Shown here in pieces: positions 39,771 to 59,962 of a stretch of 64,000 nt of DNA; the stretch's first letter is position 1, and the number at the start of each line of letters is the position of its first letter. The position numbers were made by a program, and so were the translations under genes. The notes below the pieces were generated by a model. That model did not search any database and was not told where the DNA came from. It saw only the letters and a program-made list of their open reading frames with translations. The DNA comes from Patescibacteria group bacterium (GTDB taxonomy: Bacteria > Patescibacteriota > Minisyncoccia > Phycocordibacterales > CAIZLB01), in assembly GCA_040386515.1 (NCBI GenBank), contig JAZKFG010000002.1, positions 79,074-143,073 on the forward strand, in the 5' to 3' direction.

Positions 39771-39797
39771 ATTCTTATTACGTGGTAATATTATTAT

Positions 39798-40646
39798 ATG
39801 AGTTTCCATTCATTTCCGCGTCTCAATAATAAAAAAGGATTTACACTTATTGAACTCCTTGTAGTTATTTCTATTATTTCACTACTTTCATCAATTGTAT
39901 TCACTTCATTATCGAGTGCACGAGTTAGAGCTGCAAAAGTTGCAGGAATGGAATTTGCCTCACGAATGGATAGAACTATTGGATTGAACACTGCAGTGGA
40001 TATTGATTTTGATGAGGGAACTGGAACAAAAGTTGTAAATAAATCAGATGGAAACCAAGCAACCGCAGTAGGCGGTCCTACATGGTCAACTGATACGCCA
40101 ACAGGAATTGGCTATTCAATGGCATTTTCAGGTACTCAAAACATAAATGTATATGCAACAGGTGATGGAATGAATGCAACTAATGATGGAAGGGCTTTTA
40201 CATATGCCGCATGGTATGAACCAAGAGTAGTGAATCCGGCAACAGGGATTTATATATTAAACAGATCAGGATATCACTCAGGAATAACGCACTCAGCATC
40301 TGGAAGACTTGGCTGTACACAGTGGTTTACCGATATAACAAACATCAATATACAATATACAACGAACGTCGATGCGGGAAGATGGTATCATGTTGCGTGC
40401 ACAGTCGACAGTCTTAAAAAAACTATTACATTATATGTTAACGGTAATGCTGTTAATAAAGCAACATACACGACAGGTAAGATTTTATATGATTATTCAG
40501 CAGTTCCATATACAATAGGAGCATTTAGTTCTACGTATGCAGCAGATGGAAATATTGACCAAGTACGAGTATTTACACAATCTCTCGTTGCTCAACAAGT
40601 TAAGGATTTATACGATGCTACAAAGGCACAATTTGCCCTAAAGTAG
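39798..40646 (+). CDS. Type IV pilin-like protein with a C-terminal LamG/lectin-like domain (paralog of 25839..26615)
   Basis: KG|FTLIELLVVISIISLL prepilin motif; RWYHVACTVD..LYVNGN and GNIDQVRVF LamG blocks. Confidence 0.65.
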   Translation: MSFHSFPRLNNKKGFTLIELLVVISIISLLSSIVFTSLSSARVRAAKVAGMEFASRMDRTIGLNTAVDIDFDEGTGTKVVNKSDGNQATAVGGPTWSTDTPTGIGYSMAFSGTQNINVYATGDGMNATNDGRAFTYAAWYEPRVVNPATGIYILNRSGYHSGITHSASGRLGCTQWFTDITNINIQYTTNVDAGRWYHVACTVDSLKKTITLYVNGNAVNKATYTTGKILYDYSAVPYTIGAFSSTYAADGNIDQVRVFTQSLVAQQVKDLYDATKAQFALK

Positions 40647-44387: not shown

Positions 44388-46166
44388 ATGAATGACGACA
44401 AAAGAGTGACATATTTCGGTTTGACCGATGCCAGAAATCAAGAGAGAAAATTTGGTATTTATGACGAGGATAGACTTCGTCATATGTATGCTATTGGTAA
44501 GACTGGTATGGGTAAATCAACTTTGCTCGAAAACATGGCCATTCAAGATATTCAAAATGGCCAAGGTTTGGCATTTCTCGATCCTCATGGAAAAACAGTT
44601 GAGCTTCTTCTTGAGCATGTTCCAAAGCATCGTATTAAAGATGTTATTTATATTGCACCATTTGATCTTGAGCATCCTATTGCCTTTAACGTGCTTGAAG
44701 ATGTGGGCGATCCAGATCCAGTTCGACGTCAGCTTATCGTTTCAGGCTTGATGAGTACATTTAAAAAGCTGTGGCAAGATCAGTGGAGTGCTCGAATGGA
44801 ATACATATTGAACTATGCACTTCTCGCACTTTTGGAAATTCCTGATGCAACACTTCTTGATGTGAACCGTATGCTTTCTGATAAGCAGTTCAGAAACAAT
44901 GTTGTTCGTCAGCTTAAAGAGCCAACTGTGAAAATGTATTGGGAAAAAGAATTTGCAGCCTATACTGATAAAGTTGTTGCTGAAGCCATGCCTGCTATTC
45001 AAAACAAAGTAGGGCAATTTATTTCAAATAGTTTGATTCGAAATATTATCGGACAAACAAAATCTTCTTTTGATATTCGAGAAATCATGGATCAGCGAAA
45101 GATTTTGCTTATCAATCTTTCAATCGGACGAATCGGTGAAGATGCGGTAAACCTTTTAGGGTCATTGTTTGTGACAAAGATTTATCTTGCTGCCATGTCG
45201 CGTGCTTCTATACCAGATCGGGAAATGAAGCATTTGCCAAACTTCTATTTATACGTGGATGAGTTTCAGAACTTTACCAACGATTCATTTGCCCAAATTC
45301 TTGCCCAGGCCAGAAAGTATAAGCTGAGTTTGATTGTAGCGCACCAGTATGTAAAGCAAATGACAGAAGTTGTGCATGATGCAATTTTCGGTAACGTAGG
45401 AACTATGATTACATTTCGAGTAGGTGCGGATGATGGTGAATCTCTTGAAAAAGAATTTCAGCCAACATTCGTTGTAGAGGATTTCGTAAACCTTGGACGT
45501 TTTCAGATGTATTTAAAGCTTATGATAAATGGAGTAACATCTGGAGCTTTTTCTGCAAAGGGAATGGGTCCATGGCCATCTCCAACTGAATCATATGTTG
45601 ATGAAATTCTTGCCTCATCACGTGAGCAATATACACATCCACGAAAAGAGGTAGAAGATCATATATTACAGTGGACTCTTGGTGGTGCCTCGGGTACAGC
45701 TGCAGGAGGTGCTCCTAAGCCTGTTTCTAGTGATAATGAGAATATGCAAGGTCCAGTTGCAGCGAATACCAATAATGCCCCAAGAGAACCTCGACAGCAA
45801 TCATCACAACCAATGCAGGGACCTCGAGATAATAGAGGTGGTGAGAGAGGTGTAGATAATCGTTCTCAGTCGTCACGACCATCACAACCTCAATCTCCAA
45901 GACAGCCTGAACGAAGTCGAGATGGTAATAGAGACGAGAGAGCACCAGTTCGAGAACGAGAGCAACAGCCTCGTAGAGACATGCAACAGAATTCAGCACA
46001 CAACTCTGCACCAAAAGTTCATAATCCATTTGCAACGGCCTTTAAAGCAGTGCTTGAAAAACCGGTCGAAGAAAAAAAAGATGCATCAACTGAATCGTCT
46101 TCGTCTCAGCAGAAGAGAGACATAGACCCTGACGTTTTGAAAAGCATGCTTGGTCTTCAAGAATAA
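44388..46166 (+). CDS. VirD4/TraG/TraD-like P-loop ATPase (type IV coupling protein family) with a long disordered Q/R/S/P-rich C-terminal tail. No TM segments and no other T4SS genes nearby.
   Basis: Walker A GKTGMGKST, Walker B LYVDEFQNF, the AHQY sensor motif, and an ILLINLSIG block typical of TraG-D_C. Confidence 0.5.
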   Translation: MNDDKRVTYFGLTDARNQERKFGIYDEDRLRHMYAIGKTGMGKSTLLENMAIQDIQNGQGLAFLDPHGKTVELLLEHVPKHRIKDVIYIAPFDLEHPIAFNVLEDVGDPDPVRRQLIVSGLMSTFKKLWQDQWSARMEYILNYALLALLEIPDATLLDVNRMLSDKQFRNNVVRQLKEPTVKMYWEKEFAAYTDKVVAEAMPAIQNKVGQFISNSLIRNIIGQTKSSFDIREIMDQRKILLINLSIGRIGEDAVNLLGSLFVTKIYLAAMSRASIPDREMKHLPNFYLYVDEFQNFTNDSFAQILAQARKYKLSLIVAHQYVKQMTEVVHDAIFGNVGTMITFRVGADDGESLEKEFQPTFVVEDFVNLGRFQMYLKLMINGVTSGAFSAKGMGPWPSPTESYVDEILASSREQYTHPRKEVEDHILQWTLGGASGTAAGGAPKPVSSDNENMQGPVAANTNNAPREPRQQSSQPMQGPRDNRGGERGVDNRSQSSRPSQPQSPRQPERSRDGNRDERAPVREREQQPRRDMQQNSAHNSAPKVHNPFATAFKAVLEKPVEEKKDASTESSSSQQKRDIDPDVLKSMLGLQE

Positions 46167-46169: not shown

Positions 46170-46943
46170 ATGAAGTACTCAATCATTATTCCAACCTACA
46201 AGCGACCAGATAAGCTTATACGCGCGGTTCAATCTGTTTTTGCCCAAAAGATTAAGTCTTTTGAAATCATTATCGCAAATGATAGTCCTGGATATTCGTA
46301 TGCAGCATTTGAAACATATTGCATAGGATTGACGGATGATCAAAAAGATCAAATCGTCTACATTCAAAACCTGCAAAATAGTGGATCAAATTTCTCAAAG
46401 AATGCTGCCTTAGGACAAGTGTCAAAGTCTACTGATTATGTGATGTTTTTGGACGATGATGATTGGCTTTCATCGAACGCGCTTGTTGATATAGACGGTT
46501 ACTTGAAACGAAACATGGTTGCATGGCTTGTAACCAATCGGGTTTTGAAAGATGGAAAAAGCCTGACGTTTTCCCCTAAAGAAAAAATACATTATTTTTG
46601 GGATTATTTAATAACCAAAAGGGTAAAAGGGGATGCAACGCATATTATTAAGAGGGCATATGCAACACGATATTCATTTTCTAAAAATGCCAAGAATACA
46701 GAGGAGTGGTTTTACTTTATTCAATTGCCTGTGGATGCCATTTATAAGCCGTATAACACGACGGAAAGCGAAGGATACGATCAAGACGGGATAACGACAA
46801 ACTTACAAATGATATATGCCGATAATACAAAACTGCTAATGAGAGAAGCTCGAGGATTTAAAATGCACATATATCTTATCATACGATATGTATACGGTAT
46901 GCTAAAAAAACAAAAATCAACTGGCAATAATGCTCAGGGTTAA
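46170..46943 (+). CDS. Family 2 glycosyltransferase
   Basis: IIIPTYKRPDKL N-terminus and the DDDD (DxD) motif. Confidence 0.7.
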   Translation: MKYSIIIPTYKRPDKLIRAVQSVFAQKIKSFEIIIANDSPGYSYAAFETYCIGLTDDQKDQIVYIQNLQNSGSNFSKNAALGQVSKSTDYVMFLDDDDWLSSNALVDIDGYLKRNMVAWLVTNRVLKDGKSLTFSPKEKIHYFWDYLITKRVKGDATHIIKRAYATRYSFSKNAKNTEEWFYFIQLPVDAIYKPYNTTESEGYDQDGITTNLQMIYADNTKLLMREARGFKMHIYLIIRYVYGMLKKQKSTGNNAQG

Positions 46944-47023
46944 TTCGTTTAAGGATTTTGAAGTGTCGCGGGACATCAATGTATACAAAGGAACGCAAAT
47001 TAATGTATACTGTTTTAAACACT

Positions 47024-47779
47024 ATGAAAATATTCGTCATCAACCTACGAAGAAGAATGGACAGAAGAATCAGCATGGAAACACAGCTTAATCGGGAAAA
47101 GCTGCCTTTTGAGATTATTCCGGCACTCGAACTTAAAGATATTCAGAAAAGCGACGTGAGTGGTGTATTCAACAAAGGAACCATGTATCAGCCAAACGAA
47201 ATCGCGTGTTCAGCCTCTCATCGATTGATATACGCGCGCATGATTAAGGACAACATTCCAAAGGCTATGATATTCGAGGATGACGTGGTTATGCCTGTTG
47301 ATTTTAGTAATATTGTTGAAGCGTTGGATAATCATACGTATGATGACATTGATTGGCTTCAAGTAGATTATCCCAGCGTTGGATTTGGCTTTATACGACA
47401 ATGGACGAAGGTATACGTAGGGTTTTTTGAATTCAAAATAACCTATATGCTCAAGTTCTTCGTTAAGTTTCCGATTGTGGTTGCAGTATCGCTATACGAG
47501 CAGTTTCTGCTCTGGTTTGTTGGACAAACTTTTCAGTCACGCATTCCAACGGTAGTTCGGTTTTACCGTGACGTGTATTTTGCGAGTTGTTATATAGTGA
47601 CACTAAGCGCAGCAAAGAAGTTGCTTGCAGCCCAGACACCGCTTATGTACACGGCAGACAAGCTCCCAAACATGCTTAAAAAAGAAGGGTTTAAAATGCG
47701 GATTTGCATCCCTCGATTTACGTATCAAGACAATCAGTCGTTCGGCTCAGACCTAACTCCTGTTATTCCTCGTAAGTAA
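47024..47779 (+). CDS. Family 25 glycosyltransferase (LPS/LOS beta-1,4-galactosyltransferase-like), paralog 1
   Basis: MKIFVINLRRRMDRR start characteristic of GT25; about 65% identical to 49616..50362. Confidence 0.6.
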   Translation: MKIFVINLRRRMDRRISMETQLNREKLPFEIIPALELKDIQKSDVSGVFNKGTMYQPNEIACSASHRLIYARMIKDNIPKAMIFEDDVVMPVDFSNIVEALDNHTYDDIDWLQVDYPSVGFGFIRQWTKVYVGFFEFKITYMLKFFVKFPIVVAVSLYEQFLLWFVGQTFQSRIPTVVRFYRDVYFASCYIVTLSAAKKLLAAQTPLMYTADKLPNMLKKEGFKMRICIPRFTYQDNQSFGSDLTPVIPRK

Positions 47780-47781
47780 TA

Positions 47782-48588
47782 TTAGATAACGTTTGAATAA
47801 TCTTTTTCATCGTATATATATCGAAGTCCGAATCCAATATCAAATGACTGGTATCCAAGTTCTGCATAGTGTTTTGCCAAGATCTTGCTTGTCGGTCCTG
47901 TTGAAATTGCAAGCACGACTTTTTTGTCGGCAAGGTTTGAAAGGACGTTGTCAACAGTTGCTATTATATTATGAAGTTTGTCGAAAGAATTTTCCTTTGG
48001 CGTGTCAACGTAGGTTGCTGAGGCAAAGGGTATGGTCGTTTTACGTATCTCTGCATTCGCATCCTCATTCGTTACGAATACCACATGCTTGTCCTGTAAA
48101 AATTCGTTAAAAAACCGGAGCATGAGGTTTCTATAATAAAAGAAGTGCGCATCCGCGTACGCGGCGTCTTTGTTGAACATCTTTCTAAATTCAACCTTAA
48201 GGGGGAGCCAACAAGAAAGCTTGCCGTCTGTCTTCGAAAGTTCCTGATTAGTGTAATTTACAAAAACTGGGATGCTTAGGATATAGGGTGACTCAAGAGT
48301 GTATTCCTTAATAATTTTCCGAAGACCAAGCTCAAGCTCCTTTTCGTGCGGCTGGTAGTGAATGTCTCGACCGTGAAGTAGGCCTATTTCTCCATCCCCG
48401 ATACGGATGATTGATTTGCCTTTTGCTATTTGATCAAAAAGCTCGTGCTCGGAATAAAAGCGCGCGGAATTAGGGTAGGTTTTTTGGGGATAAGCCATTG
48501 CATAGGCGAGTACAAAAGAAGGATACCGTAAAAGGTAGTTTTTGAAAAAATTAACGATTCTCTTAAGGAATGCGATTTTAGAATCCAT
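47782..48588 (-). CDS. DUF1792-like (GT-D type) putative glycosyltransferase, paralog 1
   Basis: Conserved IIRIGDGEIGLLHGRDIHYQ block (DxE-like metal motif); paralog of 51930..52724. Confidence 0.4.
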   Translation of the reverse strand: MDSKIAFLKRIVNFFKNYLLRYPSFVLAYAMAYPQKTYPNSARFYSEHELFDQIAKGKSIIRIGDGEIGLLHGRDIHYQPHEKELELGLRKIIKEYTLESPYILSIPVFVNYTNQELSKTDGKLSCWLPLKVEFRKMFNKDAAYADAHFFYYRNLMLRFFNEFLQDKHVVFVTNEDANAEIRKTTIPFASATYVDTPKENSFDKLHNIIATVDNVLSNLADKKVVLAISTGPTSKILAKHYAELGYQSFDIGFGLRYIYDEKDYSNVI

Positions 48589-48620
48589 GCCAGTAGTATA
48601 GCGTATTTATAAAGTTGTGT

Positions 48621-48668
48621 ATCCTAGATTTTCAGTATATTTCGGATTCTAATATGAAGAGGTTTTAA
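48621..48668. repeat. Conserved ~45-nt intergenic motif (copy 1), CTAGATTTT.A..ATATTTCGGATTCTAATATGAAG.GG.TTT; the second copy is at 53621..53670
   Basis: Near-identical strings seen at both sites, each 35-80 nt upstream of a minus-strand gene start (DUF1792-like and FkbM respectively); likely a shared promoter/operator. Confidence 0.35.
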
Positions 48669-48731
48669 GTTGAAACTCTATATGTTGATACGACTTTTCT
48701 ATGTTATAATAAGAAAATAAATATACCGATT

Positions 48732-49619
48732 ATGACCCTATTCATCAAGAACTTCTTTAAAAAACACTTTTTCTACCTCTACAAGGCTATTCGAAGTGTC
48801 TTATTTCCAATATATAAACTGTATCAAAAGCTGTCATTAAAGAAATTTACTGAAACAGTATTATTTGATTTTAACTATGCCGATATTGGCTTTAAAATTT
48901 TTCTAAATCCGAAGAACGGATTTATCGATAAGGAGATTTTTTGGAAGGGTGTGTATGAAGAAGATTTTCTGGATTTTTTAAAGCAAGAGATTCACTCTGA
49001 AGATGTATATATTGATATCGGAGCAAATATTGGCCAGCACGCATTGTTTGTATCGCGTATTGTAAAGCGAGGACTTGTATATGCTTTTGAACCGAATCCT
49101 GCCATATATGATCAGTTTACTAAAAGCATAGAGGCAAATGGCATTAAAAATATTCAGCAATATAATATTGGCCTAGGTGCAGAAAAATCAGAGCAAAAGC
49201 TATTTTTGAATACTGAAAATATAGGAGGCTCATCACAGCTGCAGTACAAAGATGCAATGAGTGAAATCACAATGCATATTGAAAAAGGTGATGATATCTT
49301 AGGTCCTATTTGCAGCAAAGTTGATTTTATAAAAATAGATGTAGAAGGTTTTGAATATGAGGCACTTGTTGGTTTGACTGAAACTATTAAAAAATATAAG
49401 CCAAAAATGCTTATTGAGTTTACTCCTGTTTTCTATAATAAAAAGAATTCACAAGATGCTCAGCATATTTTGGATTTTCTTCTTGCACACGGATATAGTT
49501 TTAGAGACTTGGAAGCAGCACATAGTTCGACTGTATATAAGACAAAAGAGGAAATGACAGCATGGCTGACTTCAATGACAAAAGATCAAACAAATATATT
49601 TTGTTTTAATGCAATATGA
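48732..49619 (+). CDS. FkbM-family SAM-dependent methyltransferase, paralog 1
   Basis: DIGANIGQHALF..VYAFEPNP motif set of MT FkbM. Confidence 0.65.
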   Translation: MTLFIKNFFKKHFFYLYKAIRSVLFPIYKLYQKLSLKKFTETVLFDFNYADIGFKIFLNPKNGFIDKEIFWKGVYEEDFLDFLKQEIHSEDVYIDIGANIGQHALFVSRIVKRGLVYAFEPNPAIYDQFTKSIEANGIKNIQQYNIGLGAEKSEQKLFLNTENIGGSSQLQYKDAMSEITMHIEKGDDILGPICSKVDFIKIDVEGFEYEALVGLTETIKKYKPKMLIEFTPVFYNKKNSQDAQHILDFLLAHGYSFRDLEAAHSSTVYKTKEEMTAWLTSMTKDQTNIFCFNAI

Positions 49620-50362
49620 AAATCTTTGTAATTAATTTAAAAAGTAGAACTGACCGAAGAAGCAACATGGAAAATCAGTTGCGAAGGGAAAAGTTGGCAT
49701 ATGAAATCGTAGAGGCAACTGAACCGAGTGATATTCCTCGAGGTGAAATACACGACGTATACAGTAGAGGGAGCATGTACCAGCCTAATGAAATCGCATG
49801 TTCTGCCTCACATAGATCTATATATGCTCGTATGATGCGCGAGAATATTGAAAAGGCTATGATTTTCGAAGATAATGTGGTGATTCCCGTTAACTTCAGT
49901 AAAGTATTTGAAGCATTGGACAAGAGAAAATATAATGATATTGATTGGCTTCAAATAGATTATCCAAGTTCAGGCTTTGGATTTATTCGACAATGGCTTA
50001 AAACATATGGTGACTTTTTTGATTTGAAAATAAAGTATATTGCTAAGTTTTTTATAATATTCCCTGCAGTTGTAGTACTTGCATTGTACGAGCAAATTCT
50101 CCTGTGGTTTGTCGCTAATACTGTTCAATCAAGAGTTCCAACAGTTGTTCGATTCTATAGAGATGTGTACTCAGCAAGCTGCTATATAGTTACTAAGCAA
50201 GCCGCAGAGAAATTATATAAGGCACAAACTCCACTCACATATACTGCAGACAAATTGCCGAACACGCTAAAGAAAGATGGTTTTGTTATTCGAATTTGTA
50301 TACCTCGATTTGTATATCAGAATAATGAAGCATTTGGATCAAACCTTGCGCCAAGAGATTAG
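49616..50362 (+). CDS. Family 25 glycosyltransferase, paralog 2 (ATGA overlap with the upstream gene)
   Basis: MKIFVINLKSRTDRR; collinear similarity with 47024..47779. Confidence 0.6.
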   Translation: MKIFVINLKSRTDRRSNMENQLRREKLAYEIVEATEPSDIPRGEIHDVYSRGSMYQPNEIACSASHRSIYARMMRENIEKAMIFEDNVVIPVNFSKVFEALDKRKYNDIDWLQIDYPSSGFGFIRQWLKTYGDFFDLKIKYIAKFFIIFPAVVVLALYEQILLWFVANTVQSRVPTVVRFYRDVYSASCYIVTKQAAEKLYKAQTPLTYTADKLPNTLKKDGFVIRICIPRFVYQNNEAFGSNLAPRD

Positions 50363-51129
50363 TACGTAATATTGTTCTTTATTTTCTCTTTCAGCTTCTT
50401 TGGAAGAGTCTTTAATATGATGGCTTTAATCTGAAGATAGAAGGGGATTTTATACAGAGCTTTTTTATACCATGGAATCCATGAGCTATTTCCAAGATGA
50501 TATGAATATGTATCGTCGTTAAAATCTTCCGGATTCAGCGGGTAAAAATATTCCTGAGGAAATATGTGAATATTATTTTTTGCATAAAAGTCTGCATCAG
50601 CTGCAATTTCTGCATTTAACAAATCAGACAAGATTTTGTTAATGATAATATACTCCATCGGCTTATCTTTTTGTGTTTCAAATGCAGCATAAAACTGTAT
50701 AATCTTTTGCATAATAGAGCTACCCATTGCAGTACCTACATATTGAAAGCCAAAGTATGTCGTAACTTCATGGAAATATGCAGTAAAGAATGCATATTGT
50801 AAAAAACTTTCAGGAATATCCCTAATAAGCACTTGATCGGTGTCAAAATAAAATCCTCCATATCTATATAGTATATGAACCCTAAGTACATCTGACGCGA
50901 AAGCCCATTTCTTATCTGCAATGGCTCTATGATAATAATCTGGCAAATCAAATTCTTCTGCATCTTTTTCATTCCACTCACGTATCTCAAATCCTTTGCC
51001 ATGAGTTTTCCAGCCTTCTAATACACTATCAAAAGATTTTGGTTTATCATTTGGTCCAAGCCATATATAATGTATAATTTTTGGAATCATAAAATATGCG
51101 CAAATTAATTTCTTCGAAGAATTGCCCAC
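50359..51129 (-). CDS. GT32-type glycosyltransferase (Gly_transf_sug, DXD), paralog 1
   Basis: IPKIIHYIWLG N-terminal signature; an FDTDQ DxD-like motif. Confidence 0.6.
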   Translation of the reverse strand: MGNSSKKLICAYFMIPKIIHYIWLGPNDKPKSFDSVLEGWKTHGKGFEIREWNEKDAEEFDLPDYYHRAIADKKWAFASDVLRVHILYRYGGFYFDTDQVLIRDIPESFLQYAFFTAYFHEVTTYFGFQYVGTAMGSSIMQKIIQFYAAFETQKDKPMEYIIINKILSDLLNAEIAADADFYAKNNIHIFPQEYFYPLNPEDFNDDTYSYHLGNSSWIPWYKKALYKIPFYLQIKAIILKTLPKKLKEKIKNNITY

Positions 51130-51920
51130 TCTTGATTTTGTATTCCTCGCTCTCGCAATAGGGTATATACATGCTGTGGATTCGATATATTTCGAAGGAA
51201 TGAAAAATCTATAGGGTTGGCCATTTTAAATTGAACAATTTCAATACTATGAGTATCCTTAAAATAAGAATTAACAGCTTCTTTGCAACCAGGCACTAAT
51301 TCATCATGCAATTCGATAATACCATATGCAATTTTTGAAAATAGATTTTTGTCTGCTATATCAAGTATTGTTTTTTCAGCACCTTCGCAATCACAAATAA
51401 GCAATGTGTTATCTTTGATTTCGGGAACAATATTAGTATTGTTTGCTTCACTCTGTATTGAAAGGGGATTTGTTAAACCATTAAGTGTATACATTTCCTG
51501 TGTAAGCTTTCGTCCTTGCTCATCCATTTCAAATGCTGAGATAGAAGCATTGGGAAATATTCTTCCAAAACCAGTTGTGTAATATCCTTCAGCACTTCCG
51601 ATATCGAGTATGTGTTGAATGTTAAGCTTTTTAACTTCCTCTACGTACGGAATAAGTACTGCCTCATAGTAACCAGCAAGCTTATGTACAAATGAAGAAC
51701 CAACAGCTGACGTAACATATTTTAATCCTTTAAACGGACCTTCAATAACCACATAGCCGCTTTGTGCAAGGAGCTGCGTTGTATATTGTTCAATCACTGC
51801 ATTATCGTTGTTGTTGAAAAGCGGAGCACCGTGCTTAATATATGCAGCTCGAACTTTGTCGAAAGCTTTTTTAGGTAAAATTGAATGTAATATGTTTTTT
51901 ATTGTTGTTCGTGCGTTCAT
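51105..51920 (-). CDS. Class I SAM-dependent methyltransferase
   Basis: ILDIGSAEGYYT (motif I) and the acidic FEMDE (motif II). Confidence 0.5.
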   Translation of the reverse strand: MNARTTIKNILHSILPKKAFDKVRAAYIKHGAPLFNNNDNAVIEQYTTQLLAQSGYVVIEGPFKGLKYVTSAVGSSFVHKLAGYYEAVLIPYVEEVKKLNIQHILDIGSAEGYYTTGFGRIFPNASISAFEMDEQGRKLTQEMYTLNGLTNPLSIQSEANNTNIVPEIKDNTLLICDCEGAEKTILDIADKNLFSKIAYGIIELHDELVPGCKEAVNSYFKDTHSIEIVQFKMANPIDFSFLRNISNPQHVYTLLRERGIQNQEWAILRRN

Positions 51921-51929
51921 ATATGTGTT

Positions 51930-52724
51930 TTAAATAACGTCTGAATAATCTTTTTGATCATATAAATATCTAAGACCAAATCCTATGTCAAATGACTGAT
52001 ACCCAAGATCTGCGTAATGCTTAGCTAAAATCTTGCTTGTTGGGCCAGTTGATATGGCAAGCACTACATTTTTATCAGCATATGTCTTAAGAGTCTCGTC
52101 AACACTGACTATTATATCATGAAGTTTAGCAAAAGAATTTTCCTTTGGAGTGTGTACATAGTGAGCAGAAGCAAAGGGAATTGAAGTAGATTTGATTTGA
52201 GTATTAGTCTCTTCATTTGAAATAAAGACTACATGCTTGTTTTGCAAGAACTGGGCAAAGAACTTAAGCATAAGCTCTCTGTAATAAAAATAGTGAGCGT
52301 CCGCATATGAAGCGGTTTTATTGAACATTCTTCTGAATTCAACTTTGAGTGGAAGCCAACATGAAATCTTTCCATTTGTTGTTGAAAGTTCCTGATTAGT
52401 AAAATTTACAAAAACAGGAATACTCAATATATATGGTGAGGTAGGGGAATAGTTTTTTATAATATCTTTTAATCCTTGCTCAAGTTCAGGTGAATGTACT
52501 TGATAGTGAATATCTCTACCGTGCAATAATCCTATTTCACCATCTCCAATTCGTATAATTGATTTGCCTTCTGTTATTGCTGCAAAAAACTCTTGCTCAG
52601 TATAAAAGCGCGCCTTATTTTTATAATTCTTTTGAAAATATCCAAGTGCATATAAAAGTACAAAAAAAGGATCCTTGAGAAAATGGTGTTTGAAGAATTT
52701 AATAACTTTTTTTATGAATGCCAT
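51930..52724 (-). CDS. DUF1792-like (GT-D type) putative glycosyltransferase, paralog 2
   Basis: IIRIGDGEIGLLHGRDIHYQ is identical to the block in 47782..48588. Confidence 0.4.
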   Translation of the reverse strand: MAFIKKVIKFFKHHFLKDPFFVLLYALGYFQKNYKNKARFYTEQEFFAAITEGKSIIRIGDGEIGLLHGRDIHYQVHSPELEQGLKDIIKNYSPTSPYILSIPVFVNFTNQELSTTNGKISCWLPLKVEFRRMFNKTASYADAHYFYYRELMLKFFAQFLQNKHVVFISNEETNTQIKSTSIPFASAHYVHTPKENSFAKLHDIIVSVDETLKTYADKNVVLAISTGPTSKILAKHYADLGYQSFDIGFGLRYLYDQKDYSDVI

Positions 52725-52727
52725 ATA

Positions 52728-53591
52728 CTATAGACAGAGAATATTTGTTTGAATTGGTGTAGATTCTAGAAATGCTTGAATAGTGTCTTTAGTGATTTCT
52801 TTTTTATTTTGATCAATATCATATATTCGATATCCAAGATCGAGTATGAATGTCAATAACTCCTCGCTGCTAATATTCATTTTCTTATAGAAAAGAGGTG
52901 TAAATTCTATAAGCATTTTTGGATGATATGTTGCAATATTTTTTTTCATGCCTTGCAGCGCATAATACTCATAGCCCTCAACATCCATTTTCATAAAATC
53001 AATTCGATCTGATTCATTCCAGAAATCATCAAACACTTTCACTTCTGCTCGCTCTACTGAAGTGGCCTCGTCTCGCTTGTCGAAGGTTGTTCTTCCGATG
53101 TTGAGGTTGTCCAAGTATATTTCCTTTACTTCATTCTTATTTGATAGACCAAAGTTGCACACGGTAACATTGGTAAAATTATTTGCCTGAATACTTTGAT
53201 TGATTTGATTCACAAGTTTTGGCAATGGCTCAAAAGAATATACTTTTCCTTTTTTTGCTATGGCTGCCATACACATAGAGTGTTGCCCAATATTTGCGCC
53301 TATATCTAAACACTTACTATTTTCTTGAACATGTTCTTTTAATATTTCTAATATCTCAGGCTCCCATATGCCATTATTGTAAATGTCTTTATCGATAAGT
53401 CCATTCTCAGGATCAATCATTATCTTGTATGAAATATCTTTGTAGGTAACATCCTTAAGAGTCGGCTTTGTAAAATGCACAAGATTGATATTTTCTTTCT
53501 TATTGAGAAAAATATATTGTCCGTATTTGTATGCTTTGTACACAGCAATATAGAGCGAATGAGGAAGATACTTTTTTAGTGTTGAATTCAT
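52728..53591 (-). CDS. FkbM-family methyltransferase, paralog 2
   Basis: CLDIGANIGQHSM..VYSFEPLP. Confidence 0.65.
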   Translation of the reverse strand: MNSTLKKYLPHSLYIAVYKAYKYGQYIFLNKKENINLVHFTKPTLKDVTYKDISYKIMIDPENGLIDKDIYNNGIWEPEILEILKEHVQENSKCLDIGANIGQHSMCMAAIAKKGKVYSFEPLPKLVNQINQSIQANNFTNVTVCNFGLSNKNEVKEIYLDNLNIGRTTFDKRDEATSVERAEVKVFDDFWNESDRIDFMKMDVEGYEYYALQGMKKNIATYHPKMLIEFTPLFYKKMNISSEELLTFILDLGYRIYDIDQNKKEITKDTIQAFLESTPIQTNILCL

Positions 53592-53620
53592 GACTACATA
53601 ATAGCGTATATATATCCTTA

Positions 53621-53670
53621 ATCCTACCTAGATTTTTAACATATTTCGGATTCTAATATGAAGCGGCTTT
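53621..53670. repeat. Conserved ~45-nt intergenic motif (copy 2)
   Basis: See copy 1 at 48621..48668. Confidence 0.35.
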
Positions 53671-53894
53671 CGGAGTTTTACTTCTCCAATACTGATAAAA
53701 TATGAGGCGCAAATCATAAGTAGGGCAATGCATACCGATATGACTGAGATCTTTCCAAACTTTTCAAATAATCCTGTTGGTATCTGTATTTTCCTTAATG
53801 GCATTTGAAAAATAATGGAAGACTAGAACTGAGCAGGCGGCAAAAAAACTGAGTAAATCGAGTATCGGAAAATAAGTCTTCTTCATAAATGTGT

Positions 53895-55169
53895 TTATAC
53901 TGCCTTAAGTTTTTCTTTGTGTGTTAGTAGTAAATATACCCCAATTGCTCCTACAATAAAGTTTTTCGCAAGTACTGCTATAACTATTCCGAGAATTCCT
54001 AGCTTAAACGTATATACAAAAAGAATATAGAGAAGAATTTGAATAACAGGATCGCCAATATGGTAGAGATAGTTTTTACCCAAATGTTCCTGTGCCAAGA
54101 ATATATACCATACGATTGAAACAGGAGTTAAAATTACTACAGCAAAAAATAGTCTAGATAAAGAGATGGCCTCCATGTATTTTGGGAATAAGTAGCTAAA
54201 GATGAGTGGGGCAGAGAAATAATATACAGCTGTTAATATAGTCATTGCAAAGGTTGATGCAAGCAGAATATATGTAAATTTTTTCTTAAAAGCTCTATTT
54301 CCAATATCGGTATGTACAAAGCGTGGAAGGTAAATATTTGAAATCTGGGAAATGAATCGCTGTGCTTCGGTAGGTATTGTGGTTGCAATCCAATATGAAG
54401 CAAGCGCTGCTGAACCAAAGAATTGAAACAAAATAAGCTTGTCTGCCTGCGTACCAAGAGCAAAGACTATGCCCATTAAACTATAATGTATTGAATTTTT
54501 GAGCAATTCTTTATCGATTGTTGGTTGAGTTGAAGTGTCTTCCAGCTTTTTGTGCAATGAATATATATAGAGCAATTGAATAATTCCAATAATCGTAATA
54601 TTTGAAAAAAGCAAAATATATGAATTTGTAAGCTTTAAAGCAAAAACAAAAAATACAATGCATACAAGGGATGCAACTTTATTTACAATTAAAAACTTTG
54701 AAGAAGATTTGAAATCTTCGCGACCCTGCAAAAACGATGTATACAGACCAGATAACTCAAGAATAGGCATCGAAACTGCAAGAATGGTAAACCCCCAAAA
54801 TAATTCACTATTTCCATTCGCAAAATAGTATGCACCAATTCCAAGACTGGTAAAAACACCGATCAAAGAAAACCAACCCTTATATATAAATGCTCGCTTT
54901 AAAGAATTGAAGCCTTTAGCAATAGATATGGTTAATGCAGAGGTTATACCTGAAAGCATAAGGCTTCCAAGTACTCCATACCAAGAAAAGATATATCTAT
55001 ATACACCTGTTTCATGCTCGTTGATGTTATTGGCAATAATATATGTCACCGCAAGTGTGCACGCAATAGAGATAATATATGCAGAAATATTATAAAAAGA
55101 ATTCTTTATAAGAAACTGCAAATCTATTTTCAAAAACTTATTATTAATATGTGTAATTATTTTTTTCAT
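53895..55169 (-). CDS. Wzx-like oligosaccharide flippase (MOP/PST superfamily)
   Basis: 424 aa, about 12 TM helices, with a charged loop pattern typical of polysaccharide transport (PST) proteins. Confidence 0.65.
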   Translation of the reverse strand: MKKIITHINNKFLKIDLQFLIKNSFYNISAYIISIACTLAVTYIIANNINEHETGVYRYIFSWYGVLGSLMLSGITSALTISIAKGFNSLKRAFIYKGWFSLIGVFTSLGIGAYYFANGNSELFWGFTILAVSMPILELSGLYTSFLQGREDFKSSSKFLIVNKVASLVCIVFFVFALKLTNSYILLFSNITIIGIIQLLYIYSLHKKLEDTSTQPTIDKELLKNSIHYSLMGIVFALGTQADKLILFQFFGSAALASYWIATTIPTEAQRFISQISNIYLPRFVHTDIGNRAFKKKFTYILLASTFAMTILTAVYYFSAPLIFSYLFPKYMEAISLSRLFFAVVILTPVSIVWYIFLAQEHLGKNYLYHIGDPVIQILLYILFVYTFKLGILGIVIAVLAKNFIVGAIGVYLLLTHKEKLKAV

Positions 55170-55822
55170 TTTCCTAAAACAAATTTAATAGCATTCATTA
55201 CGCCAATTCTTCGAGCAAATTTTCTAAGTCTTCGAAAGGGTACCCAGCTTTCCGCCCATAAATTATCCGCGTAGGCATTCTTAAGTTTTTCAGGTGTTCT
55301 TTTTTCTCCGTCAGAACATGGATTGAAGTATGAACTATCATAAATCTTAACGCCTGCAGGTTTTTTATCTTTAAATATTTTGGTAACAATAATAGGGGAT
55401 GTTTCTTCGCGAGTTTGGGATTTGGTTGGATTATTATAATGAGCAAGAATATCTTGTATAAAAGAATCGTGTGCCGCAGCTCCGATTACTCCGCATCCGA
55501 TGTACCCATCTGGCGTATATCCAAAGAATGTTGTATGCAAAAGCTTGTCATCAAAATTCTTCAAGACCAATGTGTCTGTGTCTAAGTATATTCCACCTTC
55601 TTTTTCTAGAACCCAAAATCTAATATAATCAGATACGAATGCCCACAATTTTTGGTCATACATAGCCTTAACATATGCATTGTCCATAGGGCTATTTGTT
55701 TCATCCCATCGAATGATTTCGAAATCAGGCAGTTTTTCTTTCCAACTAGCAAGACACTTTTTGGCCATTTCAGGAAGCTCTTTTCCACCAACCCATACAT
55801 AGTGAATCTTTTTTGGAATCAT
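55166..55822 (-). CDS. GT32-type glycosyltransferase, paralog 2
   Basis: MIPKKIHYVWVGG..IYLDTDT (DxD). Confidence 0.6.
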   Translation of the reverse strand: MIPKKIHYVWVGGKELPEMAKKCLASWKEKLPDFEIIRWDETNSPMDNAYVKAMYDQKLWAFVSDYIRFWVLEKEGGIYLDTDTLVLKNFDDKLLHTTFFGYTPDGYIGCGVIGAAAHDSFIQDILAHYNNPTKSQTREETSPIIVTKIFKDKKPAGVKIYDSSYFNPCSDGEKRTPEKLKNAYADNLWAESWVPFRRLRKFARRIGVMNAIKFVLGK

Positions 55823-55847
55823 ACTTATCTATGCTACCATAGTCTGT

Positions 55848-58100
55848 ATGAACACAAAACATACACCTGATCCAACAATAGTTAAAGCCTTGCGCGTTTC
55901 AATTATTACTTCCATTTGTATCGCCTTGTGCACACCTCTTATTGTTACGTTGACGCTCTATTTTCCATATATTACAGGTAAGGCATATTTTATGAGAAGC
56001 TTTATCTTGCTCGCTGCAGTTCTGTATACAATGCTTGCTACAATTGATAAAACATATCGTCCAAGAAAATCCGTACTTATGTATTCTGTACTCGGATTTA
56101 TGGCGGTGCTTGCTATATCATGCTTTAACAGTGTAAATCCAATTAAAAGCTTTTGGAGTAACTTCGAGAGAATGGAAGGATTAGTTACTCTATTATATAT
56201 GGGTGCTTTGTTTATAATCAGTGCATCAGTTATCAAGAAGAGAGAATGGACTTGGGTAATGAATGCCTCACTTGCTATATCGGTTGCAGTGGGAATGATG
56301 GGTCTACAGGATTTTGCCAAAGCAGCTCCTGGAGATGTTGTTCGATTGTCTGGAACTCTTGGAAACTCTTCATATCTTGGAGTATATGCACTTATTCATA
56401 TTTTCTTGGCATTGCTTGGACTGCTTATGATTTACAGAGGGAAGAGAGAGGAAGAGCTTTTAAAATCAGGTAATCATGATGCTGCCACACGACTAGACCA
56501 GACTTCATACATATATATGGCCATATATGCTGTCTTGGCTATTTTCAATACATATATAATGTTTAATACAGGTACTCGAGGATCTTTTGTGGGACTTGTA
56601 ATAGGGTTACTTGTAACATCTGGATTTTTGGCCATAAAGGAGAGAAATAAAATATTGCGTTTTGGATCAATGGGTGTACTTGCTGCAGTATTCTTATTTG
56701 TAGTTATTCTTGGAACTTTTAAGAATAGTGATTATGTCGCGGCATCACCAATGCTTTCTCGATTCGGTGCGCTTATTACAACTGATATAAAAGGAGTATT
56801 GGCAACACAAGGGGCTGCACGTACAACGCTATGGCGTATGGCATATCAAGGTGTAAAAGAAAAACCAATGCTAGGATGGGGACAGGATACCTTTGGGTAT
56901 GTATTTGCTAAACACTATGATCCAGCAATGTATCAGCAAGAGCAATGGTTTGATAGATCACATAATGTGTTTATGGATTGGCTTATCTCAGCTGGAGTAT
57001 TGGGACTTATTGGGTATTTGCTTTTGTTTGTGACAGCCATAATTTGCTTATTCTCGTCACGAGCACGATTAACTGTAATTGAAAAATCAATTTTGATGGG
57101 ATTGCTTGCGGCGTACTTTATTCACAATCTTTTTGTATTTGATAACTTGTCAACGTACGTATTATTCTTCGTATTGCTTGGATATATTCATGATAGATAT
57201 ACGCATGATCGAGTAGTATCTGCATCAGAATCAAAGAATGGAGTTGATATGGGTACTCTTATGATTGCAGCAGGATTCTTTGCAGTTCTATGTGCATCAT
57301 ATATTGGCTACAAGACTATATATCAGCCATATGCACAAAATGCAGCATTGATTGATGCGCTACGAATGGCTAATGATCAATCGCAAGTTACAAAGGAAAT
57401 GCTTCCACGAATGAAAAAAGTTCCTATGGACGTAGCCTATGAAGATTTTGTAAAAGTATTTTCATTAGGACATACAGGTGAAGTTGAAGGATATGAGCAG
57501 CTGATGAATGTTGCTCTAGGTGCAGCAACATCAGAGACTGTGTCAGAAGAAACTAAAATTAAATTTATTGAGCTATTCCAAAATCGAATTGTGTACCATC
57601 AGGAACATAATGCAGCTGATCCTCGTTTTGCATTCTTTGCCTCAAACTTCTACTCTAAAGTAGATGCTCTTGATCCTGCTATTGCATACGCAAAGCTTGC
57701 ATACGATCTGTCTCCACAAAAACAATCATTTGCATATTCGCTTGCTGTGCTTGAATACAGAAAGGGAAATATTGCTACTGCTCTACAAATTGTAAAGAAA
57801 GCATATGAAGATGCACCACTGAATTCGGATGCATTCTCTTATTACGTATCGACTCTACTTGAAGAAGCTAAGACTGCAAAGGGAACATCATACGATGCAG
57901 TTAAGCTCGGAGGTATTGCACAGGTACTTGCTGATGGGTATACAAAATACAATCAAACATTGGTTATTGACCAAAGATTCTGGGATGTATTTATGACAAC
58001 AGGACATGAGAAGTCTGCAAAGCTTCTTGCTAATCGATTGGCTGAACTTATTCCTGAGAAAAAGGCTGAATTTGCTACATTTACGACTGTGAAGAAATAG
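55848..58100 (+). CDS. Wzy_C-family membrane protein (O-antigen ligase / polymerase / O-oligosaccharyltransferase superfamily) fused to a C-terminal TPR-like soluble domain
   Basis: About 12 TM helices with a large loop containing RSHNVFMDWLISAGVLGLIGY (the H-N..L..G..G signature of Wzy_C). The C-terminal 330 aa are helical-repeat (TPR-like). Confidence 0.55.
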   Translation: MNTKHTPDPTIVKALRVSIITSICIALCTPLIVTLTLYFPYITGKAYFMRSFILLAAVLYTMLATIDKTYRPRKSVLMYSVLGFMAVLAISCFNSVNPIKSFWSNFERMEGLVTLLYMGALFIISASVIKKREWTWVMNASLAISVAVGMMGLQDFAKAAPGDVVRLSGTLGNSSYLGVYALIHIFLALLGLLMIYRGKREEELLKSGNHDAATRLDQTSYIYMAIYAVLAIFNTYIMFNTGTRGSFVGLVIGLLVTSGFLAIKERNKILRFGSMGVLAAVFLFVVILGTFKNSDYVAASPMLSRFGALITTDIKGVLATQGAARTTLWRMAYQGVKEKPMLGWGQDTFGYVFAKHYDPAMYQQEQWFDRSHNVFMDWLISAGVLGLIGYLLLFVTAIICLFSSRARLTVIEKSILMGLLAAYFIHNLFVFDNLSTYVLFFVLLGYIHDRYTHDRVVSASESKNGVDMGTLMIAAGFFAVLCASYIGYKTIYQPYAQNAALIDALRMANDQSQVTKEMLPRMKKVPMDVAYEDFVKVFSLGHTGEVEGYEQLMNVALGAATSETVSEETKIKFIELFQNRIVYHQEHNAADPRFAFFASNFYSKVDALDPAIAYAKLAYDLSPQKQSFAYSLAVLEYRKGNIATALQIVKKAYEDAPLNSDAFSYYVSTLLEEAKTAKGTSYDAVKLGGIAQVLADGYTKYNQTLVIDQRFWDVFMTTGHEKSAKLLANRLAELIPEKKAEFATFTTVKK

Positions 58101-58175: not shown

Positions 58176-59420
58176 GTGGATCTTGATACACGCCTAAACT
58201 CTGAAACCACGAACCTAATAAACCTCATGAAAACGTTAAAAAACTTGGTGATGTATTTCATTGCCTGGGCACTATTGACTGTGCCTACTTTCGCCCTTGA
58301 TACATTCGAGGGAATGATTACATTCAGCCGCACATTGACTATGAAGTCTGCGGTCGAATTGCTGGTACCTGACTACAATGTTGTGTGCCCTAGTCGAGTT
58401 CATCCTCGCGGCATTCGGCATACGGTGGATACTTCCTACTATATCGAAGGTTTCTTCAGACGCGGAAAAGGAGAATTCGTTCTCCGAGAAGTATGGCCAA
58501 CGAAGACTATAGAAGAGGGGAGGTTGAAGGCGTCCGGTAAGGTGAAAGAAATTTCTCCTACACCCGATCCTGTGACACCTCCTATTACTCCTCCTCTGGC
58601 TGAACAACCTAAACCTCTTCCACCTGTGACTCCTCCGATTGCTGCTGCTCCTGCACCAGTAATTGATTCTCCTGCCTCTGAAATTTCTGAAAACGTTATC
58701 GACATGTTTACGTCTTTCTCTGCACCTCCGCCTACTGCCTCTTTCGAGACGGTATTCGCACAAACCACTTTTCCGTCTACAACGACGACCATTGGTTCGT
58801 TCGAAAACTTTAACTTCACAGAGCCGGTAGATGAGGGAGTTGCTCTTGATGGAAAGATTGTCTTTGAGGACAACATTGATTTGTCCAAGACAATTAAAGG
58901 TGATGGTCCTGTCATACAGAATTCTCAACCTGGGAATGCATTTTCTACAACTGATACGCAACCTGCAAAACCCTCCCCTCAAGAAGGTCCAATGATTTTT
59001 CCTTCAAAAAATGATCGGAGAAGCATTGCTGAAAGTAATGCGGCGAAAATTGATGCAGTAAGTTCTACGACTAGTGAAGAAACTGGAGCCGCTGTGGTTA
59101 AAAAACATTTGACTGCAGATCAGTTCGTGATGATTATTGTCGGATGTGTTGCACTCGCAGCGTACTTGTTGTATCTCCTGTGGCATAAACGTGTCTGGAG
59201 AAAAATTTTTTCAAAAGACGAACTGGGTATTGGTGTTGAAAGTAAATTACCTACAGTGAATACTTTTCCTATTGCTGCACCTGCACCATCACCAGGTAAA
59301 ACAATTTTGCCTCCAGAGAAAAAACCTCTGCCGGAAAGAAAGCCTGTTGACGCTCAAGCATCGCACTCAAGGGAACACTTGCTAAGTACCTTCGGTGTCC
59401 AAGTTGATGACGAATCATGA
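58176..59420 (+). CDS. Pro-rich surface protein with a signal peptide and a C-terminal TM anchor
   Basis: VTPPITPP/VTPPIAAAPAP repeats; C-terminal FVMIIVGCVALAAYLLYLLWHKR TM. Confidence 0.45.
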   Translation: MDLDTRLNSETTNLINLMKTLKNLVMYFIAWALLTVPTFALDTFEGMITFSRTLTMKSAVELLVPDYNVVCPSRVHPRGIRHTVDTSYYIEGFFRRGKGEFVLREVWPTKTIEEGRLKASGKVKEISPTPDPVTPPITPPLAEQPKPLPPVTPPIAAAPAPVIDSPASEISENVIDMFTSFSAPPPTASFETVFAQTTFPSTTTTIGSFENFNFTEPVDEGVALDGKIVFEDNIDLSKTIKGDGPVIQNSQPGNAFSTTDTQPAKPSPQEGPMIFPSKNDRRSIAESNAAKIDAVSSTTSEETGAAVVKKHLTADQFVMIIVGCVALAAYLLYLLWHKRVWRKIFSKDELGIGVESKLPTVNTFPIAAPAPSPGKTILPPEKKPLPERKPVDAQASHSREHLLSTFGVQVDDES

Positions 59421-59740: not shown

Positions 59741-59875
59741 ATGGCAGTAAAAAAAGCAGCTAAGAAAACTACTAAGAAAGCAGCTCCTAAAAAAGCAGCT
59801 AAGAAAGTAGTTAAGAAAGCAGTTAAGAAAGCGGCTCCTAAAAAAGCAGCTAAGAAAACTACAAAAAAGAAATAG
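59741..59875 (+). CDS. Small (44 aa) Lys/Ala-repeat protein, histone H1/Hc1-like low-complexity DNA-binding-type peptide
   Basis: MAVKKAAKKTTKKAAPKKAAKKVVKKAVKKAAPKKAAKKTTKKK, with a TAG stop at 59873. Confidence 0.35.
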   Translation: MAVKKAAKKTTKKAAPKKAAKKVVKKAVKKAAPKKAAKKTTKKK

Positions 59876-59962
59876 TCTTACCACTATTCCACTTGCAAAA
59901 CACGCAATGTCCCAAAAAGACAGAGCGTGTTTTGCTTTTGGATATATGGTATATATATACCT

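Follow-up and report, generated by a model that had tools for sequence, protein, structure and literature searches.

We analyzed a 64,000-nucleotide stretch of the genome of a Patescibacteria group bacterium (GenBank assembly GCA_040386515.1, contig JAZKFG010000002.1, positions 79,074 to 143,073; called the window below) and, within it, a 12-kb cluster of surface-sugar genes at positions 46170 to 58100. The cluster ends with a gene for a 750-aa membrane protein (55848 to 58100, + strand), termed here the Wzy_C-TPR protein, in which a Wzy_C domain is joined to a tetratricopeptide repeat (TPR) domain. Six-frame open reading frames (ORFs) scanned against Pfam and NCBIfam matched the coordinates of the cluster and confirmed the gene list of a preliminary description made from the sequence: GT2, GT25 (twice), DUF1792 (twice), and GT32 (twice) glycosyltransferases, two FkbM-family methyltransferases, a Wzx flippase, and the Wzy_C protein.

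The conserved left flank of this glycan island is a VirD4/TraG-like coupling-protein homologue (44388 to 46166, +; Pfam TrwB_AAD_bind and T4SS-DNA_transf), followed by a soluble, 257-aa GT2 enzyme (46170 to 46943, +; PF00535, 1.7e-17), by GT25 copy a (46958 to 47779, +; PF01755, 2.1e-26), for which comparison with homologues favors the ATG at 47024 as the start, and by GT-D copy a (47782 to 48588, -; PF08759, formerly DUF1792, 2.1e-14). FkbM copy a (48732 to 49619, +; PF05050, 1.7e-22, and TIGR01444, 2.7e-30) and GT25 copy b (49616 to 50362, +; PF01755, 3.5e-25) come next, and the minus strand then carries GT32 copy a with its DXD sugar-binding region (50359 to 51129; PF04488, 1.3e-09), GT-D copy b (51930 to 52724; PF08759, 1.1e-15), and FkbM copy b (52728 to 53591; PF05050, 1.6e-22). 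Between GT32 copy a and GT-D copy b lies the gene of a 271-aa protein (51105 to 51920, -) that had been listed as one more methyltransferase. This assignment is plausible, and the protein is probably a third, FkbM-like methyltransferase; it has no Pfam match, and its match to the FkbM-family model TIGR01444 is below threshold (2.1e-07; 31.5 bits versus a cutoff of 37.7).

The Wzx-type flippase (53895 to 55169, -; 424 aa; PF01943, 9.9e-11) is a polytopic protein of the Polysacc_synt/MOP family within the glycan cluster, and a member of the Wzx family from a related locus (L027) scores 4.7e-29. GT32 copy b (55166 to 55822, -; PF04488, 1.1e-13) overlaps the start of the flippase gene by 4 nt, and its start codon is only 25 bp away from the divergent start codon of the Wzy_C-TPR gene. 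The GC content is 0.349 in the cassette (0.336 in its core, 48732 to 55822), 0.375 in the rest of the window, and 0.378 in the Wzy_C-TPR gene. Positions 46170 to 55822 very probably constitute a lipid-linked glycan cassette, and the data support the Wzx-type locus that the preliminary description had envisaged.

Domains and predicted topology of the Wzy_C-TPR protein

The Wzy_C domain (PF04932) of the protein scored 67.9 bits (cutoff, 31.7) over aa 231 to 391, and the same hidden Markov model (HMM) matched 13/13 tested homologues (best E value, 1.4e-20). Proteins of this type are publicly annotated as "O-antigen ligase family protein," and we found no NCBIfam ligase, polymerase, or oligosaccharyltransferase (OTase) model for the transmembrane (TM) domain. 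The single sequence gave no Pfam match for the TPR domain, which was recognized by phmmer against PDB (1.5e-11 to a consensus TPR protein), by comparison of the family profile with the TPR domain of OGT (2.8e-18), and in an AlphaFold2 (AF2) model by stacked helix pairs from aa ~490 to 750; the fusion of TPR to Wzy_C, already noticed in the preliminary description, is thus well founded.

The AF2 model (pLDDT, 92.4; pTM, 0.90), like our calls of invariant residues, is based on an alignment of 67 homologues (A1). It places 12 TM helices within aa 9 to 452, with a large extracytoplasmic loop (aa 291 to 373) preceding TM10, as in the fold of WaaL, and we assign aa 1 to 460 (55848 to 57227, +) to this transferase domain. 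An extra hydrophobic helix (aa 468 to 490; 57249 to 57317, +), seen in the hydropathy profile and as AF2 helix 468-513, runs on into the repeat domain (aa ~491 to 750; 57318 to 58100, +). In the 67 homologues, the density of Lys plus Arg is 0.255 in predicted cytoplasmic loops versus 0.078 in short outside loops. This positive-inside pattern would give a protein with its N terminus in the cytoplasm, 13 TM helices, and the TPR domain outside, on the same face as the catalytic loop.

Residues R244, H426, and D432 are invariant in the alignment, as are R305, R325, P340, G343, G345, E365, D369, R370, and H372 of the large loop. When the TM-domain profile was compared with E. coli K-12 WaaL by hhalign, R244, R325, and H372 aligned with R215, R288, and H338, in a weak match (E value, 0.072). 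The three WaaL residues are essential and are conserved in PglL as R224, R298, and H349 (PMC3643930), and a conserved His is required in all Wzy_C O-OTases, the known families of which all carry Wzy_C (PMC9829042). P313 is conserved in PglL and WaaL, G316 and G318 are conserved in PglL only, and H400/E404/P406 and Q178/N180 are further residues conserved in PglL and not in WaaL (PMC3643930). The spacing of R325, P340, G343, and G345 (+15, +18, and +20) equals, in register only, that of R298, P313, G316, and G318 in PglL, whereas E. coli WaaL has a Pro at +15 and lacks the GxG. This match of spacing is suggestive of a PglL-like site. On the same footing, invariant H426 is 54 residues past H372, versus a distance of 51 residues in PglL.

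A conserved gene beside an exchangeable cassette

The databases contain more than 1,860 homologues with the same ~750-aa architecture, nearly all from metagenome-assembled genomes of Patescibacteria/Parcubacteria, and searches of GTDB species genomes confirmed at least 554 such stretches. One database protein, from a metagenome-assembled genome of a Patescibacteria group bacterium, is 100% identical to that of the window; a lookup of the exact sequence in assemblies gave no record. The family occurs among the Nomura-, Yonath-, Lloyd-, Taylor-, Zambryski-, and Vogelbacteria. We then compared 83 related loci (numbered L001, etc.), each with as much as 10 kb of flanking sequence per side (1.34 Mb in total). 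The gene secA, the right-hand neighbor of the Wzy_C-TPR gene in the window (59927 to 62239, +; Pfam SecA domains), also follows this gene, on the same strand, in 48/51 loci whose downstream sequence is at least 7 kb long, at a distance of 353 to 6,105 bp (median, 1.6 kb). In 25/83 loci (L042, L054, L069, L085, L086, and others), although not in the window, murB, which encodes UDP-N-acetylenolpyruvoylglucosamine reductase, lies between the two genes.

Upstream, the picture is one of turnover. In 44 related loci, the gene immediately 5' of the Wzy_C-TPR gene is a divergently oriented wzx. In nine species, that slot is filled by Wzm and Wzt (ABC_tran with Wzt_C), with Wzx missing, and some orthologues have no adjacent cassette at all (e.g., L076). 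The VirD4-like gene, which also forms the cassette boundary in L003, lies 17 bp to ~1.1 kb upstream of the Wzy_C-TPR gene in cassette-free loci L030, L031, L036, L055, and L076. Over 861 locus pairs, the identity of the Wzy_C-TPR proteins followed that of SecA (r = 0.84), whereas the sharing of upstream gene families (Jaccard index) followed SecA identity far less (r = 0.27), and the partial correlation between Wzy_C-TPR identity and cassette sharing was 0.11. Wzx identity correlated with cassette sharing at r = 0.47 versus r = 0.36 with SecA identity, less than half of the Wzx pairs being detectable by BLAST.

Individual loci illustrate this contrast. L015 shares 89 to 91% SecA identity with L010 and L014 and only 1 of ~20 upstream families, and yet the Wzy_C-TPR proteins are 66 to 69% identical despite almost wholly different cassettes. 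The locus closest to the window by SecA (L001; 89%, with 68% for Wzy_C-TPR) has no cassette gene in common with it, and L003, L009, and L013, with SecA identities of 73 to 77%, have 7 to 10. Sequence comparison thus identifies the Wzy_C-TPR gene as a vertically inherited core gene of Paceibacteria-type Patescibacteria, lying outside the variable cassette.

The cassettes themselves consist mostly of GT1/GT4 and GT2 glycosyltransferases, methyltransferases, epimerases/dehydratases, aminotransferases, GT10/GT11 fucosyltransferases, and NeuB. About 10 of them (L044, L082, L086, L061, and others) pair NeuB with a CMP-sugar cytidylyltransferase, for nonulosonic acid synthesis, 13 contain GT11 fucosyltransferases, and methyltransferases of several families are unusually plentiful. 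A search of the 83 loci for a separate polymerase in the cassette (any protein that lacked an assignment and had seven or more TM helices) yielded a few scattered candidates, and none in most cassettes; a 407-aa protein of L001, considered as a second polytopic protein, was rejected as soluble.

To date the paralogues of the window's own cassette, we compared it with L003, which combines a 73% identical SecA with a similar cassette. Its counterparts are 47% (GT2, the first cassette gene), 57% (FkbM1, to copy a), 39% (FkbM2, to copy b), and 56% (GT32, to copy a) identical to those of the window, and orthologues of the probable third methyltransferase are present in the cassettes of L003, L009, and L013 (53 to 58%). 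In L003 (8083 to 9966), a single 627-aa protein combines the orthologue of GT32 copy b with Wzx, a Rosetta-stone fusion suggesting that GT32 copy b may work at the membrane together with the flippase.

The preliminary description had put each paralogue pair at about 60 to 65% identity and had read the pairs as the result of an old segmental duplication. By blastp, the identities are 68% for GT25 (69% at the nucleotide level), 72% for GT-D, 37% for FkbM, and 29% for GT32, so that the estimate is wrong for two of the four pairs. The two GT25 copies are equidistant (27 to 32%) from the single GT25 gene of L003 and L013, and each GT-D copy is ~57% identical to the single orthologue in these loci; these two pairs therefore arose within the lineage of the window. 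The FkbM and GT32 pairs are ancient, since each copy has its own orthologue in L003. The sequences thus point to two single-gene duplications or acquisitions within the lineage (GT25 and GT-D) and to two ancient paralogue pairs (FkbM and GT32). A simple segmental duplication was rejected, because no collinear duplicated segment was found in the cluster, DNA similarity being limited to the GT25 pair, the GT-D pair, and a 44-nt element, and because the copies differ in GC content (0.41 for GT25a versus 0.36 for GT25b; 0.405 for GT-Da versus 0.326 for GT-Db).

GT25a and GT-Da lie next to each other in convergent orientation (46958 to 48588), and the DNA similarity between the GT25 copies extends ~50 nt 5' of the ATG, into sequence that is the 3' end of FkbM copy a at copy b. 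This suggests that the GT25a/GT-Da module may have been copied from an FkbM-GT25 junction, possibly in a related genome, and its higher GC content hints that, instead of segmental duplication in situ, a small module may have been acquired from a close relative. The 44-nt elements (48623 to 48666 and 53627 to 53670, - strand) are located 35 to 80 nt upstream of the start codons of GT-Da and FkbM copy b. They are 88.6% identical, versus ~70% in the duplicated coding DNA, and are candidates for a shared promoter or 5' leader of the minus-strand cassette operons. In scans for promoters and terminators, we saw no enrichment relative to shuffled sequence. Phase-variable repeats occur in GT25 enzymes of lipooligosaccharide synthesis; we found none in the glycosyltransferase genes here, and only two 8-nt homopolymers.

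Elsewhere, the window encodes a sortase, four pilin-like proteins (N_methyl), PheRS, GyrB, LeuRS, MreB, PBP2, and RRF, in addition to SecA, a gene set that assigns it to a Patescibacteria genome. Two regions far from the locus (1165 to 3648 and 14697 to 19277) contain further glycan-related genes, for an 827-aa GT2 with a long N-terminal extension, a PMM-like HAD phosphatase, a GH130 mannoside phosphorylase, and a 764-aa GT4. Just 5' of secA, a 44-aa Lys/Ala-rich ORF (59741 to 59875, +; MAVKKAAKKTTKKAAPKKAAKK...) with a 12-nt/51-nt tandem repeat may encode a small histone H1-like basic protein; in L001, a gene of 37 aa occupies the corresponding position.

Candidate functions and acceptors

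Because the transferase follows the species tree while Wzx and the glycosyltransferases are swapped, we propose that the Wzy_C-TPR protein is a terminal transferase, acting en bloc as a ligase or an OTase, rather than a polymerase, and we regard this as likely. A species-conserved ligase beside variable glycan genes is what classically sets WaaL apart from Wzx/Wzy and is a signature of ligase-type enzymes such as WaaL and PglL. In the genomes with Wzm/Wzt, no polymerase is needed, since the ABC-exporter pathway has no polymerase step. The terminal-transferase reading, already put forward in the preliminary description, thus gains from both the agreement with the species tree and the nine loci in which Wzm/Wzt replaces Wzx.

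In our model, the low-GC, horizontally exchangeable cassette (46170 to 55822) would direct the synthesis of a methylated hetero-oligosaccharide on a polyprenyl-diphosphate carrier at the cytoplasmic face, by means of seven glycosyltransferases and two or three methyltransferases, and Wzx would move the finished product across the membrane. The Arg/Arg/His site in the outside loop of the WaaL-fold enzyme would then detach the flipped glycan from its lipid carrier and transfer it en bloc to an acceptor at the outer face, largely independently of glycan structure. Helix 13 would set the 260-aa TPR domain outside, beside the catalytic loop, with the recruitment of protein acceptors as its likeliest role. 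Secreted proteins would be the likeliest class of acceptor because the TPR domain is predicted to face outward, and the enzyme would be an O-OTase for Sec-exported surface proteins, similar to WsfB/WsaB and, more loosely, to PglL. Co-secretional transfer would fit the conserved neighborhood of secA. We would put the chances of this explanation as a whole, i.e., a cassette served by a promiscuous WaaL-fold transferase that acts as an O-OTase on Sec-exported proteins, at about even. The idea of a protein acceptor, taken over from the preliminary description, is our best guess and could go either way.

Several observations weigh against this explanation. No initiating phosphoglycosyltransferase was detected in the ORF scans of the window, and none is common in the related cassettes. 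The linkage to secA, with murB, may reflect a conserved neighborhood of envelope biogenesis genes and not a coupling to SecA. TPR domains are also found in polysaccharide-export scaffolds and are no proof of a protein substrate. In most Wzx-type cassettes, the Wzy_C-TPR protein is the sole Wzy_C-like protein, and a polymerase or dual role is possible for these. Because the hhalign match is weak, the equivalence of the catalytic residues with those of WaaL rests on motif register and fold. The TM-domain profile (A2) had no match at an E value of ≤10 among PDB sequences, and hence none to any solved Wzy_C protein. The preliminary description had leaned toward PglL; beyond Wzy_C itself, however, the profile searches were negative, with no match for Wzy_C_2 or O-antigen_lig even at an E value of ≤10. 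PglL_A (PF15864), an HMM that separates PglL from WaaL (PMC3643930), gave no match for the Wzy_C-TPR protein at an E value of ≤0.01 and none in 13 family members at an E value of ≤10, which does not sustain membership in the PglL family.

The failed PglL_A test is one of the points in favor of a glycolipid ligase similar to TacL or WaaL, which would join the flipped glycan to a membrane glycolipid anchor to give a lipoglycan or a lipoteichoic acid-like polymer, the TPR domain serving as a scaffold or for partner binding. The sole solved structural relative that we found, WaaL, is a lipid A-core ligase, and the core-gene, glycan-promiscuous behavior of the family suits any ligase equally. A preprint reportedly proposes a dual role, on lipid and on protein, for WaaL of Aggregatibacter (bioRxiv 10.1101/2022.10.31.514599). 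Bacteria of the Candidate Phyla Radiation (CPR) have scant lipid biosynthesis, which counts against a glycolipid acceptor. TacL of S. pneumoniae, a Wzy_C enzyme of a monoderm, joins TacF-flipped chains to a glycolipid; however, neither TacL (397 aa) nor WaaL (~400 to 420 aa; 403 aa in the 7tpj chain) has the extra helix or the TPR domain (PMC5727136). The PglL-type GxG spacing (PMC3643930) and the combination of Wzy_C with TPR, an architecture described for protein O-OTases (PMC2943079), also speak against a glycolipid ligase, which we consider unlikely on balance but a serious rival.

We judge it quite improbable that the protein is a Wzy polymerase joining Wzx-flipped repeat units, with TPR as an integral regulator of chain length or a scaffold for export and with another enzyme (e.g., an LCP protein) attaching the product. 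Pfam Wzy_C includes polymerases too, TPR domains are known from polysaccharide-export scaffolds, and no other Wzy_C-like polytopic protein is encoded next to Wzx, either in the window or in the majority of Wzx-type cassettes. A polymerase would, however, be glycan specific, covary with its cassette, and be restricted to Wzx pathways, whereas the divergence of the Wzy_C-TPR family tracks SecA and not cassette content, the opposite of Wzx. Cassette replacement between L015 and L010 or L014 left the proteins 66 to 69% identical, nine orthologues are paired with Wzm/Wzt, and others are cassette free, as in L076. No Wzz/PCP-type gene was recognized in the window or among the 25 most frequent Pfam families in a set of 133 representative ORFs located upstream in the related loci.

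The preliminary description linked the locus to pilins, and the window is indeed rich in them, with four pilin-like genes. Two of these (at 62521 and 63348) follow secA directly, an arrangement found otherwise only in L001. In this specific version, the enzyme would be an O-OTase dedicated to the type IV pilins encoded 4 to 6 kb downstream. PglL homologues are pilin adjacent in 21/31 cases (PMC3643930), and pilin O-glycosylation has been predicted, without demonstration, in Saccharibacteria, where glycosylation processes are unexplored (PMC11623550). Nevertheless, we found only two pilin-like ORFs in the 1.34 Mb of the 83 loci, neither of them adjacent to the Wzy_C-TPR gene, the conserved neighbor of which is secA and not a pilin gene. 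A tfpO/pilO gene is located immediately downstream of its pilin gene, and the C-terminal Ser of the pilin is the acceptor; in the window, the nearest pilin gene is 4.4 kb downstream of the Wzy_C-TPR gene, past secA, and the pilins end in ...FVNE and ...FIND, without a C-terminal Ser. The specific pilin link thus finds little in its favor: we strongly doubt a pilin-dedicated enzyme, and pilins are improbable as the main acceptor of a broader one. Other pilin genes of the window have lectin domains: an 837-aa protein with Peptidase_S74 (endosialidase intramolecular chaperone) is followed by a pilin with a LamG/ConA-like domain (37257 to 40646), and a second LamG-pilin is encoded at 25839 to 26615. 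These proteins look like sugar-binding adhesins of a pilus tip or fiber.

Between the Wzy_C-TPR gene and secA lies a gene for a clade-specific type I membrane protein of 414 aa (58176 to 59420, +) without Pfam or NCBIfam match, the GC content of which (0.447) is the highest of the measured locus genes. In the product, a probable signal peptide (translation probably starts at M18) is followed by a conserved ~80-aa domain containing a CP..VHP motif, by a stalk rich in Pro, Ser, Thr, and Ala, and by one TM helix and a Pro-rich tail. That it might be a mucin-like glycoprotein substrate is speculation. The N-terminal domain was found at the same position only in L001, L003, L008, L009, L013, and the window, and the stalks are wholly different among these relatives, being Pro rich in some and coiled-coil in L003. 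A family-wide conserved partner was therefore rejected: the protein is limited to the window's own clade and, because it is confined to six loci, cannot account for the TPR domain of the whole family.

Going further, the secA-linked Wzy_C-TPR gene could encode the general protein O-OTase of Paceibacteria, with the cassette as a serotype-like hypervariable locus that sets surface identity. Sec-exported proteins (pilins, S-layer proteins, and 58176-type mucin-like proteins being possible examples) would be decorated while emerging from the membrane with the glycan supplied by whichever cassette adjoins, cassettes being exchanged between lineages of ultrasmall episymbionts. We advance this generalization tentatively, as somewhat less probable than its negation. 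If true, it would define the first protein glycosylation system in the CPR, and a glycan-promiscuous O-OTase that brings its own TPR domain for acceptor binding may interest glycoengineers; if the enzyme is instead a glycolipid ligase or a polymerase, the locus is an ordinary, though well-mapped, polysaccharide locus.

The surface glycoconjugates of CPR/Patescibacteria are essentially uncharacterized in the searchable literature, and our search for O-antigen ligase or Wzy_C in Patescibacteria, Parcubacteria, Saccharibacteria, or CPR returned nothing relevant. Here, a single conserved, high-confidence enzyme occupies a fixed chromosomal site beside a hypervariable glycan island in hundreds of species. 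The family offers a concrete gene for testing the makeup of an episymbiont cell surface, and its site is a marker for reading glycan "serotype" diversity straight from metagenomes.

Comparison with known ligases and oligosaccharyltransferases

A lipid-linked glycan cassette with a Wzy_C ligase or OTase is a known kind of system. To our knowledge, what is new is the CPR-wide core status of the transferase, the fixed site by secA with a swappable island, and the WaaL fold extended by TM13 and a large, predicted external TPR domain.

Like WaaL, the CPR family is conserved within the species while neighboring glycan genes vary, and the equivalents of R215/R288/H338 are invariant, as judged from the weak alignment. 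Unlike WaaL, the protein has ~330 extra residues (TM13 and TPR) and a GxG with PglL-like spacing, and it has no match to WaaL at the sequence level. Patescibacteria are a monoderm lineage, and, in agreement with the preliminary description, which had seen no sign of a lipopolysaccharide core acceptor, we found no lipid A or lipopolysaccharide core genes among the scanned ORFs of the window, whereas WaaL sensu stricto is encoded with such core genes. TacL resembles the CPR protein in being a Wzy_C-family ligase that works in a Gram-positive envelope, on the product of a Wzx-like flippase (PMC5727136), and differs from it by its smaller size, the lack of TPR, its glycolipid acceptor, and its service to one conserved polymer rather than to swapped cassettes.

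With PglL of Neisseria, Acinetobacter, and Burkholderia, the CPR protein shares the Wzy_C domain and the Arg/Arg/His residues, and its P-x2-G-x-G spacing after the second Arg is suggestive of PglL. The relaxed glycan specificity of PglL and its en bloc transfer from undecaprenyl diphosphate are what we propose, by analogy, for the CPR enzyme, and PglL likewise has a reported TPR motif and a gene outside the lipopolysaccharide core locus (PMC3643930, PMC9829042, PMC2943079). In contrast to PglL, the CPR family lacks a PglL_A match and conserved pilin adjacency, and it has the 13th helix, a much larger TPR domain, and a monoderm host.

By described architecture rather than by sequence comparison, the Wzy_C-TPR protein would be closest to WsfB, the O-OTase of Gram-positive S-layer glycosylation. 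WsfB and PglL, both Wzy_C proteins, carry a TPR motif at the C terminus, and WsaB is encoded beside the TPR protein WsaA (PMC2943079). The S-layer glycosylation (slg) clusters of Paenibacillus alvei and Geobacillus stearothermophilus have low GC content, methyl capping, and proposed co-secretional transfer, and their O-OTases, WsaB and WsfB, go together with export by Wzm/Wzt (PMC2943079). The likeness thus covers a monoderm host, a low-GC, strain-specific glycan cluster with lipid-linked assembly and O-methylation, Wzm/Wzt export, as in nine related CPR loci, and a terminal Wzy_C transferase with TPR either at its own C terminus (WsfB, and the protein encoded in the window) or in an adjacent protein (WsaA/WsaB). 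Unlike the slg clusters, the window has Wzx in place of an ABC exporter, and no S-layer gene or WbaP-type initiating enzyme was seen near its locus. The CPR transferase also differs in being a secA-linked core gene with a swapped cassette alongside rather than a plain member of the cluster.

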